From Candidatus Saccharimonadales bacterium (GTDB lineage: Bacteria > Patescibacteriota > Saccharimonadia > Saccharimonadales > EFPC-124), in the NCBI GenBank assembly GCA_035457485.1, contig DATIBO010000006.1, forward strand, positions 690,659-754,658: DNA of 64,000 nt, written 5' to 3'. Both the position numbers and the translations under genes were made by a program. Each line of letters starts with the position of its first letter. Within the stretch, counting starts at the first letter, position 1. Under the pieces are notes generated by a model. It saw nothing but the letters and a program-made list of their open reading frames with translations. It did no database searches and was not told the origin of the DNA. Of this stretch, positions 36,246 through 58,155 are shown piece by piece.

Positions 36246-36280
36246 AAATTATGCTGTATTTATTTTATAATATTCATAAC

Positions 36281-46504: not shown

Positions 46505-46647
46505 ATGGCATTTTCATCAGTTACCCCCAGTATACCAAGGAATGATTTACTGTAAACCCCTCGGTACGTTTTAGTTTTACCGTTTTTTATTTTATAATAT
46601 ACAAACTGCAGTATGCAGAGGTAAGTACTCGAGGGCAGGAGGCTTAA

Positions 46648-47064
46648 ATGGTCAATCCGACCACGCTTGCTGGTTTGATCGACGAGCACGCGAACGCGCT
46701 GGCCAGTCAGGTGCGAGCCCACTACTTGTGGACAGCCCAACTCGGTCGGAAGTCGGCGGCAGCGTTTAAAACCGCGAACGTAGCCGTAACTAATCCGTTC
46801 GGGCTGACGATCATCATCGGTATGCAGACCAACGAGCCGCAGGAGGGTGGCAGCAATCCTGTGACACGCAAGTGGGCAACCCTGACCATCAATGGCGTTC
46901 AGGATCCAACATTGCGAGCCCAGGTCACCGCCATCCTGTCGGCGCTGGAAACCTACGGGGTTTTCAGCATAAGCGGGAGTACCGTTACCTTCGGTTACAA
47001 GATCGAGACAACCGATCACGCCGAAGCGGTCACTAAAGCTTTGAACGCCGCCAACCGACGCTAA
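46648..47064 (+). CDS. hypothetical protein, GC-rich islet gene 1
   Basis: 138 aa. AGGAGG SD. Third codon positions are mostly G/C in this frame. No motif recognised. Confidence 0.55.
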   Translation: MVNPTTLAGLIDEHANALASQVRAHYLWTAQLGRKSAAAFKTANVAVTNPFGLTIIIGMQTNEPQEGGSNPVTRKWATLTINGVQDPTLRAQVTAILSALETYGVFSISGSTVTFGYKIETTDHAEAVTKALNAANRR

Positions 47065-47077
47065 AGGCGGGAGAGAA

Positions 47078-47578
47078 ATGAAAATCGTTAACTGGCTTTT
47101 AGACCGGTTTGCTACGGCTAAGACATGGGAGGGTCTCGGGCGATTCTGCGTGGAGATCTCTCTGGAGCTGAACCTCTGGTCGAACGAGGTAGCCGAGTGG
47201 CAAGCTGACCAGGTCCGCCTGGGACAAGCCAAGATCAGCACGACCACGACTCCCGGTCTTCGACGTGAGATCAAAGGAGCCGGCCTCAGAGCGACTCTAT
47301 ACCTGTCGAACGAGATCCGACCGGCGAACATCAGAGGATTCATGCTCCTGAGATCACTGCGTTTCGCCGACAACGAGCAGCCGCGTGGCCTCAAGCGAGC
47401 CTACGAGAACTGGCGCCTCGACAAAGTGATCGCGATGATCACGAACGACACGTTTGTCGGGGTGGTTCGCGACGAACATAGGGCGATGCGGCCGATCGAG
47501 CTCGAGTACCGTAGTGAGGGTTTCTCGTCTGCAATGCGGGCGTTCTCACTAGGAGCACAGCGCATGCCGCGCTCCTAG
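47078..47578 (+). CDS. hypothetical protein, GC-rich islet gene 2
   Basis: 166 aa. GGGAGAG SD. 13 nt after gene 1. Followed by a 12-bp-stem hairpin at 47586-47618. Confidence 0.55.
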   Translation: MKIVNWLLDRFATAKTWEGLGRFCVEISLELNLWSNEVAEWQADQVRLGQAKISTTTTPGLRREIKGAGLRATLYLSNEIRPANIRGFMLLRSLRFADNEQPRGLKRAYENWRLDKVIAMITNDTFVGVVRDEHRAMRPIELEYRSEGFSSAMRAFSLGAQRMPRS

Positions 47579-47678
47579 CACAATTGGGTGCCGTTCCAGC
47601 ATGATTGGAGCGGCACCCGCGGGTACTTACCGTATTCCGAAATTATAATGTATACTTTAAATATTAAGGAGTTTAACT

Positions 47679-49171: not shown

Positions 49172-49759
49172 ATGGCCCTAGAAACAGATAAAGAATTTAA
49201 GAATTACAAAACCAAACCCAGCGTTGTGGTAGTTTACACTGGCGACAGCAAAGGCAAAACCAGCGCTAGCATTGGCTTGATGTGTCGCGCCCTCGGCACA
49301 GATTGGCGTGTTGCTTTTGTGCAGTTTATTAAACACTGGGAAGTAGGCGAGCACAAGTTTTTCAACAAAATCATACCCGTTATGGGCGATCAATTAGTGT
49401 TCTACAAAGGTGGAAAAGGTTTTTATAACGCCGGAGCGCTCAGCGCAAAACAGGTGAGTAATGACGACCATAGGAACGCAGCGTTACAAACTTACGAATT
49501 CGCACTTAAAAGCGTAAAAAGTGGAGAATTTAACCTTGTAATTTGCGATGAGATCAACAACGCCGTAAAAGATGGCTTACTTACCGCAAAACATTTAGAA
49601 AAACTAATCGACGCGCGCCAGGCGAACACAAGTCTATGCCTAACAGGCAGAAATTTCCCTAAAGAATTATTACCAAAAACCGATATTGTTACAAACATGG
49701 TAAAAATAAAACATCATTTTGACGAAAAATACCTTGCAAACGAGGGCATAGACTATTAA
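49172..49759 (+). CDS. cobO: cob(I)yrinic acid a,c-diamide adenosyltransferase (CobA/CobO/BtuR family)
   Basis: Motifs VVVYTGDSKGKTSA, FVQFIK, LVICDEINNAV. ATG at 49172 preferred over 49145. Confidence 0.75.
   Translation: MALETDKEFKNYKTKPSVVVVYTGDSKGKTSASIGLMCRALGTDWRVAFVQFIKHWEVGEHKFFNKIIPVMGDQLVFYKGGKGFYNAGALSAKQVSNDDHRNAALQTYEFALKSVKSGEFNLVICDEINNAVKDGLLTAKHLEKLIDARQANTSLCLTGRNFPKELLPKTDIVTNMVKIKHHFDEKYLANEGIDY
49733..49758 (+). repeat. 26-bp direct repeat, copy 1 (the last codons of cobO)
   Basis: CTTGCAAACGAGGGCATAGACTATTA, identical to 50373-50398. Confidence 0.95.
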
Positions 49760-49801
49760 GATACTTTGTAAGTAGCTCACTGGGGGTTAGGTTGTGGCTA
49801 A

Positions 49802-50032
49802 ATGGCCAAGGCTGGCAAGGATCGCGTACGCCAGGCGGCAGCGGGACTCGGGATCATCGGCATGATCTTCGGGGCTGGCAGCACGAGCGGCGGCGTTCCG
49901 AAGAAGACCTTCGACGCGGGTTCCTCGCTGTACCGCAGCGGGAGGAGTCAGCAGCGACAGCAGCAGAGCTCACACCTGCGGAGCGGCACCGACAGCTCGA
50001 ACCGCCGGCGCGGTGGCAGTGGCCAGCGCTGA
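49802..50032 (+). CDS. 76-aa GC-rich ORF (one hydrophobic segment, S/R/Q-rich tail), possibly a gene fragment
   Basis: G/C-dominated third codon positions in this frame. Low-complexity product. Confidence 0.3.
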   Translation: MAKAGKDRVRQAAAGLGIIGMIFGAGSTSGGVPKKTFDAGSSLYRSGRSQQRQQQSSHLRSGTDSSNRRRGGSGQR

Positions 50033-50125
50033 TGGTACGAGGATCTGACGAAAGCCGGATCTGACAATCATCAAAACAGGGCTGCTCATAATCATTCGTG
50101 ATATTGAGCAGCCCTGCAGTTAGAC

Positions 50126-50344
50126 TTAAAAACCCAAAACATCTTTGATTGATTCCATAGCATCGCTGAATTTATAATCCACAACTAGCATAATCCCTGC
50201 GATTGCAATCCCCACCGCAGGGATTATAACAATCAACCAGTCCCATTTTTGCGCTAATATCTGACTAGCGACAAATATAATAGCAGCCAGAGCCATAACA
50301 ATAATCACACCGCCAAGAATTTTCTTAAAAATATTTTTGTTCAT
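50126..50344 (-). CDS. small two-TM membrane protein
   Basis: 72 aa, two hydrophobic helices, AT-rich native-like composition. Confidence 0.45.
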   Translation of the reverse strand: MNKNIFKKILGGVIIVMALAAIIFVASQILAQKWDWLIVIIPAVGIAIAGIMLVVDYKFSDAMESIKDVLGF

Positions 50345-50372
50345 TCTGACATTCTAAGATTTATTAATAACT

Positions 50373-50398
50373 CTTGCAAACGAGGGCATAGACTATTA
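50373..50398 (+). repeat. 26-bp direct repeat, copy 2 (orphan cobO 3' end)
   Basis: Identical to 49733-49758. Here it is followed by G (TAG) instead of A (TAA). Confidence 0.95.
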
Positions 50399-50500
50399 GT
50401 ATGTTTGTGGGGAGTTCCGCTTCGGCGTGAGCTCTCCACCAGCTATTATTCGCGAGTAAAAACAATTGGGCGCTCACGGCGTCTTTTTTAAAGGAGTAGT

Positions 50501-50776
50501 ATGGCAGTAGAATCAGCTAGCCGTCCCTGGGAAATGGACGCGCCTAAAGATGCGGTGGCAGAATCAATGAGTGGTGTAAATTACGGCTACGAATGGGAGA
50601 AGCCGGGAGCTTGGGGTAGAGAGCACAACATCCCTGCCGAAGTTATGGCACAGATTGAGGTTTCGGCTCCATTTTTTGTGACATCTAAGATGGCTAAAAA
50701 AGCGATCACAATGGCAATCGGCCATCAACCGCAAATGCGCCCACTCGACCTAGAATCCGCTACAACTACTAGCTAA
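50501..50776 (+). CDS. hypothetical 91-aa protein
   Basis: AGGAG SD. No motif recognised. Confidence 0.4.
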   Translation: MAVESASRPWEMDAPKDAVAESMSGVNYGYEWEKPGAWGREHNIPAEVMAQIEVSAPFFVTSKMAKKAITMAIGHQPQMRPLDLESATTTS

Positions 50777-56384: not shown

Positions 56385-56467
56385 CCTATACTTTTTGTGC
56401 AAAATATTATATAGTATGTAAGCTCTAAGAGTACCTTTTAGCTTTGTCCTACATTGGAGGTGGCTCC

Positions 56468-57418
56468 ATGCTTTGGAGCACAGCCCAGAGAACAATTCTG
56501 GGCATGCAACTCGCCGGACTTGGCGTCGTGGGACTATACCACGCGTGCATGATGTTCGGGCGAGTAAACCCGGTTGGGAGGATCGGGGTAGCTGTCGGTG
56601 CGGTCATCTGTCTGCTTTTCGTCAGTAACGGCGTAGGCATGGCGGACTTCGTTACGCCGACGCGGCCGACGATCTTCCGATCGTCCAACGGACACGCGGA
56701 TCTATTCTTCGTGCCGGGCTACAACGGCAACTCGCAGTCCCTGCACGAGATCCTGGCCCCCTGGACCCGACCCTACGCGACCGCTGGTATCCAGTACGCG
56801 CCTGGTCGCTTCGACGGAGCGCAGGCCGAGCTGGCTGTGCGAGACTTCATCCGAGAACACGGACCCGAGGTCGTCTACAGTGAGTCGATGGGTGCGCCAA
56901 TCGTTCTGGGAGCTCTGCGCCGCGGAGCAACGATCGACACCTGGGTCATCAACGCTGGCCCGGCGAGCCCTTCCAACGTGCGGCCGTGGCAGACGATCAT
57001 CGGATCGATCATGCACGGTGGCCCCGGCCTCACCGCACTGATGCAGCTCGGTCAGAGGGCTTCGATCAACTGGATAACCACCGACGCCAGTCGCATGCCG
57101 GCCAGCCAGGCCGCATACGAACGAAGCACTCATCTGACGTCGCCAATGGCGTTCGGCATGATGGAGTACCTGCGCAGCTTCGAACCGGTTCAACCGGGCG
57201 AGCTCGTCGGCAAGGTTCGCCGGGTGATCTTCGTCAGCGCTCCAGGGGAGTACGACGACCGGATCAACACCGCGAATGCAAGTGGTCGCTGGATGCTGGC
57301 ATCCGGTACGATGTATTCGCGCCGGATCCTCAGCAAGGTTCCGCGTCACGGTCACTGCATGACACCGGAGTACCCAGAAGGCGTCGGAACTGTGCTGTAC
57401 GAACTGCTCGAAAGCTAA
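56468..57418 (+). CDS. membrane-anchored alpha/beta-hydrolase-like protein, GC-rich islet
   Basis: GGAGGTGG SD before the ATG at 56468. Two N-terminal TM helices, YSESMGA nucleophile-elbow-like motif, C-terminal HGHC. A 10-bp-stem hairpin lies at 57424-57463. Confidence 0.55.
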   Translation: MLWSTAQRTILGMQLAGLGVVGLYHACMMFGRVNPVGRIGVAVGAVICLLFVSNGVGMADFVTPTRPTIFRSSNGHADLFFVPGYNGNSQSLHEILAPWTRPYATAGIQYAPGRFDGAQAELAVRDFIREHGPEVVYSESMGAPIVLGALRRGATIDTWVINAGPASPSNVRPWQTIIGSIMHGGPGLTALMQLGQRASINWITTDASRMPASQAAYERSTHLTSPMAFGMMEYLRSFEPVQPGELVGKVRRVIFVSAPGEYDDRINTANASGRWMLASGTMYSRRILSKVPRHGHCMTPEYPEGVGTVLYELLES

Positions 57419-57621
57419 AAGGCTGCGCCCGCAAACCCCATAAAAAGGGTCACTGCGGGCGCAAAAGCCCATGAAATTATTTAACAGATCATAATTATTT
57501 GCTAACAGAGGTGTATTTATGTACATAATCATTGCTTTTTTAACATAAACATGTTATAGTATTTATCACGTTGGAGGGTAACCCTACTCTTCGACAGAAA
57601 CTTCCCATCTGAGGAGACATT

Positions 57622-58155
57622 GTGAACCGGATCATCCGCAACGTTGGCATGTTGCTGGCCTCGGCTGCCCTCGTGGCCGCCTGCGCCGACACCGCCAACG
57701 AGCCCGTCCAGTCGACCCCCGTGGTCGCTACGCCGTACGCCGCACTCAACCCGAGCCCGGCGCCGGCAGGCATCGAGAACTGCGAGAACATCCCCCTGCA
57801 GAGCAGCAACTTCCACAACGGAGAGTGGCTGCAGATGGGAGCTAGCAACCTGACGTTCTCGATCGACGCCACGATTACCCCCAAAGGCAAGAACAGCTTC
57901 ATCATCACCTTCGACTTCAACGGTCACCGTGACGAGCAGTTCGCCGCATGGTTCGGCAAGGTCGACACCGCGAACCCCCGCAACATCAGCTGGAAGCTCT
58001 ACAGCGCCCAGCTGATGGAGCAGGGCGTGACGGTCGACAACGGCCGCTACACGATCTTCCAGGTCTTCGCGGATCCGTCCGCGTGCCCGGTCCCCATGAT
58101 CGGCGGGCTCGTCATTGACGAGCTCAAGGCCGCGGGTCAGTGGCCCACAAACTAA
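57622..58155 (+). CDS. lipoprotein of unknown function, GC-rich islet
   Basis: GTG start after GAGGAG. Signal peptide with lipobox LVAAC. An 11-bp perfect-stem hairpin lies at 58169-58204. Confidence 0.6.
   Translation: MNRIIRNVGMLLASAALVAACADTANEPVQSTPVVATPYAALNPSPAPAGIENCENIPLQSSNFHNGEWLQMGASNLTFSIDATITPKGKNSFIITFDFNGHRDEQFAAWFGKVDTANPRNISWKLYSAQLMEQGVTVDNGRYTIFQVFADPSACPVPMIGGLVIDELKAAGQWPTN

Follow-up and report, generated by a model that had tools for sequence, protein, structure and literature searches.

Insertion of a two-gene fragment at the cobO end of a Saccharimonadales genome, with duplication of the gene's tail

In Candidatus Saccharimonadales bacterium (Patescibacteriota; assembly GCA_035457485.1), the 3′ end of cobO, the gene for ATP:corrinoid adenosyltransferase, is present twice, the two copies being separated by 614 bp. 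We analysed this site in a 64,000-nucleotide stretch of contig DATIBO010000006.1 (positions 690,659 to 754,658 of the forward strand), which is called the window below and in which coordinates are counted unless a related locus is named. Comparison with the sequences of relatives confirmed that the 614 bp are a true insertion into the cobO end and that the 26-bp repeat is its footprint. The inserted DNA is a 5′-truncated copy of a conserved module of two small genes. We lean towards the explanation that it was joined to the chromosome as a DNA fragment through short homology or microhomology, independently of a recombinase. The event is of a known kind, to which this site adds a new example: a fairly ordinary gene gain, with an undescribed pair of genes for small proteins.

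The gene gain is resolved in a reduced genome: the filled and the empty site, both junctions and the identity of the cargo are all legible in the sequence. Such data show how ultra-small epibiotic bacteria still gain genes.

The repeated cobO tail and the empty site in relatives

The features that define the insertion are as follows.

49172–49759, plus strand: cobO (ATP:corrinoid adenosyltransferase), intact, stop codon TAA (Pfam PF02572 CobA_CobO_BtuR, E=2.8e-47)
49733–49758, plus strand: direct repeat copy 1, the last eight sense codons of cobO (..LANEGIDY) and the TA of its stop codon (exact 26-mer)
49759–50372, no strand assigned: 614-bp insert, a 5′-truncated copy of a conserved two-gene module (empty sites in loci L061 and L065; module homologues)
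50373–50398, plus strand: direct repeat copy 2, an orphan cobO tail contiguous with the ancestral downstream sequence (26-mer match; relatives)
50399–50495, plus strand: ancestral downstream region, with a conserved hairpin (UUCG loop) and an intrinsic terminator before ORF91 (L061, L065)
50501–50776, plus strand: open reading frame (ORF) 91, a conserved hypothetical gene that also lies 3′ of cobO in the relatives with an empty site (homologous frames in L061 and L065)

The repeat was present as an initial annotation of this DNA had described it, at the same positions and with copy 1 forming the last codons of cobO. The 26-mer, CTTGCAAACGAGGGCATAGACTATTA, is the longest direct repeat of the window and has no third match there at up to three mismatches. 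It had no match in 100 shuffles, so that none is expected by chance. The base that follows copy 1 is A, giving a TAA stop codon, and the base that follows copy 2 is G, giving TAG. Identity breaks off abruptly at either edge: the flanks, when aligned locally, did no better than shuffles (p=0.31 on the left, p=0.80 on the right), and a repeat longer than 26 bp was therefore rejected. An eye-catching match upstream of both copies, TCATT(T/C)TGAC, failed the shuffle test. The event looks recent, given that the two copies are identical at 26 of 26 positions and have sharp edges.

The closest relatives with readable DNA downstream of cobO were L061, whose CobO is 88% identical, and L065, with 86%. 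Both lack the insert. In L061, cobO ends in TAG and is followed by 25 nt, the hairpin sequence beginning TATGTTTGTGGGGAG, a terminator and the ORF91 homologue; in L065, cobO ends in TAA and is followed by 26 nt and then by the same hairpin, terminator and ORF91 homologue. In the window, the hairpin of the relatives begins right after the TAG of the orphan copy, with one compensatory base-pair change. Because this hairpin abuts the orphan copy, the orphan copy and the sequence downstream of it represent the ancestral cobO end, and the 614 bp are extra. The polarity of the insertion follows the same comparison: copy 2, not copy 1, is joined to the old neighbourhood. The 43 nt on the 3′ side of copy 1 did not match the spacers of the relatives.

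The initial annotation had envisaged an empty site in which cobO is followed directly by the sequence found after the orphan copy, and this is what cobO runs into in L061 and L065. It had also named an arrangement that would point to an old local duplication, with the same duplicated but diverged copies in all relatives; this was not seen, the relatives having empty sites. In a population, GACTATTAG joined straight to the cobO upstream sequence without the insert would be the empty-site allele. In L062, another relative (87%), the contig stops 7 nt past the cobO stop codon (2949–2956). A contig end at this same position may be a branch of the assembly graph and thus population variation.

The CobO proteins of 86–88% identity came from a large protein collection and lie on short contigs. 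In a species-level genome collection, CobO matches reached 70% identity at most, and 47 loci were recovered, all of them Saccharibacteria-like. Their common gene order is glutaredoxin, cobO, a variable segment of 1.5–5 kb and a conserved 351-aa gene. A scan of metagenome contigs with the degenerate 26-mer returned 13 loci, all 65–69% identical, and nothing closer. Neither gene of the insert was found in 60 other Saccharibacteria cobO loci, and these 60 cobO-anchored loci and the window held no second copy of the insert.

The inserted module

The insert and its right-hand boundary contain the following features.

49802–50032, plus strand: gene A (ORF76), 76 aa, its N-terminal segment Gly-rich and hydrophobic, its tail rich in Ser, Gln and Arg (ORF; homologues)
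50041–50065, plus strand: GGATCTGAC, 7 nt, GGATCTGAC, a short sequence duplicated locally past the stop codon of gene A and before the terminator (sequence reading)
50077–50116, minus strand: hairpin terminator between the convergent genes and common to both (−27 to −29 kcal/mol, z about −7)
50126–50344, minus strand: gene B (ORF72), 72 aa, with two hydrophobic helices, GC 0.37, GC at third codon positions (GC3) 0.38 (end-to-end alignment of five proteins)
50351–50379, minus strand: promoter-like site of gene B, −35 TTGCAA, 17 nt, −10 TAGAAT, 6 nt, ATG, with leaderless geometry (consensus scan)

The two genes carry the locus tags VLA77_04275 (ORF76) and VLA77_04280 (ORF72). Gene A has a GC content of 0.69 and a GC3 of 0.83, and across 49800–50040 the GC content is 0.66–0.78 against a background of about 0.44. 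The 76-codon ORF, the convergent 72-aa ORF with two helices, the GC-rich stretch, the hairpin and the short repeat (GGATCTGAC at 50041–50049 and 50057–50065) all lie where the initial annotation had put them. It had taken the insert to be composite, and this did not hold. A convergent partner adjoins every homologue of gene A, and an origin of the insert from separate GC-rich and AT-rich sources was dropped.

Homologues of gene A are P0122 (61% identity, in an unrelated context), P0124 (E=9e-21) and P0126; beyond P0122, a profile search of 1.84 billion representatives gave just two, both small. No homologue of ORF72 had come to light before the DNA around these genes was read. Each gene A homologue is followed by a hairpin terminator and then by a convergent ORF of 70–72 codons with two hydrophobic helices; these partner ORFs were either uncalled or separately called. 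Three contigs besides the window carry the module (L063/L064, L067/L068 and L069/L070); gene B is present twice in L069. The five gene B proteins from the four contigs match in length, position and orientation, are 19–27% identical end to end and share the invariant residues W36, L37 and D68. The hairpin is at the equivalent position in L063 and in L067/L068. In the window a run of T follows it on the minus strand only, so that it reads as the terminator of ORF72. The GGATCTGAC pair has no counterpart in the other module copies. Judged by this conserved order, ORF76, the hairpin terminator and the convergent ORF72 form one module.

Between the gene A sequences of the window and L063, 29 of 44 conserved residues carry synonymous changes, which points to clear purifying selection on gene A. 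Nine family members of the module gave no consistent match to Pfam, with only scattered sub-threshold transmembrane matches, and no family in PHROGs or PADLOC fits gene A or gene B. ORF76 and ORF72 are an undescribed pair of small membrane proteins. Their context differs among the contigs: PolA, NUDIX, a two-component system and MacB in L063, and DNA methylases in L069.

The GC3 values of gene A and gene B were 0.83 and 0.38 in the window (49802–50344), 0.84 and 0.37 in L068 (73–540), 0.57 and 0.34 in L063 (3001–3492), and 0.54 and 0.45 in L069 (925–2018). To judge from these four copies, the contrast is intrinsic to the module and travels with both genes. It is strong (0.83–0.84 in gene A, 0.37–0.38 in gene B) in two independent contexts. 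A GC-rich islet thus need not mean a GC-rich donor, as a GC-rich gene and its AT-rich partner travel together here.

The insert begins inside this module. In L063 and L067, gene A is preceded by a leader of 150–200 nt with promoter-like boxes. The leader in the window measures 43 nt, and homology can be recognised only in roughly its last 16 nt (GGTTGTGGCTAAATGG), so the window copy is a fragment cut inside the leader. Since gene A has no promoter of its own here, it is presumably expressed by read-through from cobO. The module is rare, and the cargo is an arbitrary piece of a functional unit.

Joining of the fragment at the cobO end

At the right junction, the cassette and the cobO tail may share a few bases. 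In the homologues of gene B, the −10 box lies 6–8 nt before the ATG and the −35 box 16–17 nt further upstream; the arrangement is TTGAAA, 17 nt, CACAAT, 7 nt, ATG in L063 and TTGACA, 16 nt, TATAGT, 8 nt, ATG in L069. In the window, the −35 box TTGCAA lies in the orphan 26-mer and, on the minus strand, is made up of its first six bases. The junction therefore falls within CTTGCAA, where the −35 box of the cassette itself would be expected. The boundary between cassette and cobO could then be anywhere in CTTGCAA, and a microhomology of up to 7 nt between the cassette promoter and the cobO tail is suggested.

A second, independent insertion of this kind was found in another Saccharibacterium, L038 (6501–7491), where 62 bp of the cobO tail are duplicated (61/62) at a distance of 929 bp. 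The cargo is a single IMPase/FBPase-like ORF that starts with TAATG across the cobO stop codon, has lost its stop codon and continues in frame into the orphan tail, whose end is TGA. The L038 contig ends 77 nt past the duplicated tail region. The repeats differ in length between the window and L038 (26 and 62 bp) and the cargoes are unrelated, and both cargoes are truncated: their ends cut functional units, the leader and promoter of gene A being gone in the window and the stop codon being gone from the ORF in L038. Tandem duplication was rejected in both, because the sequences after the two copies of the tail differ.

When 621 genes in 645 kb were surveyed for tails copied downstream, just four cases emerged: the two at cobO, one in L055 and one in L017. 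The sample was by design rich in cobO (about 10% of the 621 genes), and the second case at this gene therefore speaks only weakly for a hot spot (p about 0.1). In L055 (6260–8191), the last 130 or so nucleotides of a gene for a 341-aa pilin-like protein are copied 449 bp downstream. All of the approximately 15 mismatches are A in the downstream copy, and an Avd-like 131-aa ORF adjoins; this pattern marks a genuine diversity-generating retroelement (DGR). In L017 (4737–4902), a 33-bp exact duplicate lies on both sides of a scaffold gap of 100 N where a gene for a 1123-aa helicase-like protein ends. It is an assembly artefact that mimics a gene-tail duplication.

The initial annotation had reported that no integrase is present, and neither the insert nor the neighbouring ORFs scanned (about 45.6 to 58.7 kb) had a recombinase or reverse-transcriptase domain. 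The box-II motif of tyrosine recombinases, H-x-L-R-H, was absent from every frame of the window. The 143 ORFs that lie downstream of cobO in 47 related genomes included no integrase family with as many as three members; the recurrent families were a staphylococcal-type nuclease, AAA_33/zeta-like kinases, glycosyltransferases, HSP20 and ClpB. The insert has no terminal inverted repeats, an alignment of its two ends being no better than those of shuffles (p=0.42), and the three other module copies (L063, L067/L068, L069) have neither flanking repeats nor a cobO-like core. A phage or plasmid vector was also rejected. The DNA of the region matched nothing in plasmid and phage collections, a scan of viral contigs for CobO and gene A found relatives of neither, and PHROGs and PADLOC gave no hit.

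A recombinase-free insertion could account for these observations in the following way. A fragment of about 0.6 kb, with gene A, the hairpin terminator and gene B, would have entered at the cobO stop codon. It would have been joined by homology-facilitated or illegitimate recombination after DNA uptake, or by a replicative template switch. The join would have re-entered the chromosome 19–26 nt upstream of its point of departure, and the cobO tail would thereby have been copied twice. Copy 1 would have kept cobO intact, with a new TAA stop codon made at the junction. Copy 2, with TAG, would have remained joined to the ancestral hairpin, terminator and ORF91 region, and the CTTGCAA at its start (TTGCAAG on the minus strand) would now provide the −35 box of gene B.

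This explanation best fits the variable repeat length, the cutting of the cargoes through functional units, the lack of a recombinase and the plausible microhomology, in the window and L038 taken together. Illegitimate recombination facilitated by homology or mediated by microhomology occurs in naturally transformable bacteria such as Acinetobacter and pneumococcus. The present case resembles it in that foreign DNA with arbitrary ends was joined, apparently with no recombinase and with a plausible joint at CTTGCAA, in a phylum that is experimentally competent: natural competence has been shown for cultivated Saccharibacteria, whose uptake and integration of DNA through homologous recombination depends on comEC (PMC10633639). 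Uptake by natural transformation would fit this background.

Several points weigh against a recombinase-free insertion. Homology-facilitated illegitimate recombination in its classical form leads mostly to substitution or deletion, unlike the 26-bp target duplication seen here, and no homologous anchor or donor is demonstrable at this site. In the window and in L038 alike, identity stops inside the stop codon, and the L038 cargo starts at an operon-like TAATG; a left junction taken over from a donor, where cobO met its native neighbour, or an att-like site would account for such precision more easily. L061 and L065 have about 25 nt of spacer from stop codon to hairpin that the window lacks, which requires one extra event. 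The CTTGCAA microhomology is read from distant homologues only, and by our own estimate a random junction would give a usable −35 box in about 4–11% of cases. The recombinase motif search covered 64 kb of an 889-kb genome, so that a recombinase acting in trans is possible. Finally, the insert is known from one assembly.

A broader form of the proposal would make the cobO end a hot spot at which competent Saccharibacteria capture gene fragments without a dedicated recombinase, each leaving a tail duplicate of variable length, and by which the ORF76/ORF72 cassette spreads between distant lineages together with its GC contrast. We regard this as distinctly improbable. If recombinase-free insertion did take place in the window, the site would be a natural footprint of transformation-driven illegitimate recombination in Patescibacteria, and it could be tested in cultivable, transformable strains.

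Site-specific integration, which the initial annotation had proposed, is unlikely but the least so of the alternatives. The 26-mer would be the att core of a small non-autonomous or decayed element that supplies a replacement gene end, its recombinase being encoded elsewhere. Of that proposal, the insertion at the cobO end is borne out by the empty sites, whereas the attL/attR mechanism of an integrase is not, no recombinase having been found in the DNA scanned, no reuse of the core having been seen and the cargo being truncated. The site does look like an integrase-mediated islet at a gene 3′ end: the repeat is perfect, sharp-edged and of a typical length for an att core, it duplicates the 3′ end and leaves the gene intact, and relatives are empty. 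The differing stop codons of the two copies are expected if one flank comes from the element; the core holds a small palindrome, ATAG-A-CTAT, its sole self-complementarity; and the duplication in L038, at the same position and ending at the stop codon, hints at a preferred target. As evidence for targeting, this second case is weakened by the cobO-rich sample. Unlike such islets, the insert is just 614 bp long, no integrase was found here or at this site in the 47 relatives, and the cargo lacks defined element ends, being a fragment of a module that has no such core or repeats elsewhere. The unequal repeats and unrelated cargoes of the window and L038 also argue against it, as does the lack of cobO in viral contigs. 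Mobile ORFs inserted in organelle genes, for example fungal mitochondrial atp6, supply the gene with a replacement C-terminus, and its former 3′ end persists downstream as a pseudo-copy. The present site shares with them an inserted ORF between two copies of a 3′ end and a host gene that stays intact, and is unlike them in that they encode a homing endonuclease and this insert does not. The precise left edge could also be explained by one-sided (Campbell-type) homologous recombination with a Saccharibacterium donor in which the module already lay next to cobO, so that the left junction would be native and the right one new. The identity that stops exactly at the stop codon in both genomes would then be expected, TAATG in L038 being a typical operon junction, and the region past cobO is variable across Saccharibacteria. 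A length of 26 bp is near the minimum for RecA-dependent exchange. The taxon is naturally competent (PMC10633639). Yet no genome was found in which the module or the L038 gene adjoins cobO, and a mosaic cobO was rejected, as the gene has no unusually divergent region against L061, L062 and L065. The donor tail would have to match at 26 of 26 positions, while relatives with 86–88% identical CobO differ at 4–7 of the 26, and the truncated leader would still require an earlier illegitimate event in the donor. We therefore give one-sided recombination a small chance.

A false loop or chimeric join in the metagenome assembly would also produce a repeat around extra DNA, and the comparable 33-bp duplicate of L017 and the restriction of the insert to one assembly are reminders of this. 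The region contains no N, however, and for a loop in the graph there would have to be reads running from the end of the insert into the 26-mer. The insert is a conserved and coherent module, its promoter and terminator in a working layout, and an independent assembly, L038, has the same kind of structure; an artefact is very improbable. Other systems that make repeats are, taken together, the least credible explanation. For a transposon or miniature inverted-repeat transposable element, 26 bp is well beyond the usual target duplications and the duplication length should be fixed, contrary to the 62 bp of L038; inverted ends are lacking and the insert is single-copy. A DGR likewise places a copy of a gene 3′ end a few hundred bases downstream, in its variable/template pair, as the real one in L055 illustrates. 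The window differs from a DGR in having no adenine-specific differences (no mismatch at all, although the 26-mer holds nine adenines), no reverse transcriptase among the neighbouring genes and no Avd gene, a repeat of only 26 bp and the wrong type of target protein, CobO lacking the lectin fold. Against Xer/dif integration, the core does not have the two inverted 11-nt arms of a dif site, taken as a 28-bp site with a 6-nt spacer between the arms. An old local duplication conflicts with the empty sites of the relatives.

Surroundings of the insertion and other GC-rich islets

The conserved element between cobO and ORF91 (50399–50495) consists of a hairpin with a UUCG or UCCG loop and one compensatory pair, followed by a terminator and a ribosome-binding site. 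Its counterparts are at 1189–1265 in L061 and 710–790 in L065. It matched no family in Rfam and could be a leader or a small RNA. The ORF91 protein has the motif PW..xAPKD, which is kept in the two closest relatives, and had no match in Pfam or PHROGs.

Most Saccharibacteria (L001–L047) carry a staphylococcal-nuclease homologue, an AAA_33/zeta-toxin-like kinase and a family-2 glycosyltransferase in the 0–4.5 kb past cobO. In the lineage of the window, ORF91 and a family-4 glycosyltransferase are found there instead.

The initial annotation had suggested that the GC-rich islet at cobO may reveal how other GC-rich islets arrive. The GC-rich part has no separate origin; as it is one gene of a module with an intrinsic contrast, the site says little on the arrival of the others. 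Another islet (56444–58155, GC 0.53–0.63) is located between a glycosyltransferase gene and smpB, and its overlapping ORFs had no match in Pfam, PHROGs or PADLOC. A further islet (46600–47613) lies upstream of the glutaredoxin gene. An AT-rich repeat of 18 nt (17/18) at 36259–36276 and 46586–46603 has one copy at the left edge of this islet and is probably due to chance. At the same place L062 (1–800) has an unrelated GC-rich ORF of 172 aa, and synteny between the window and L062 resumes exactly at 47614, so that GC-rich cargo turns over at a fixed spot.

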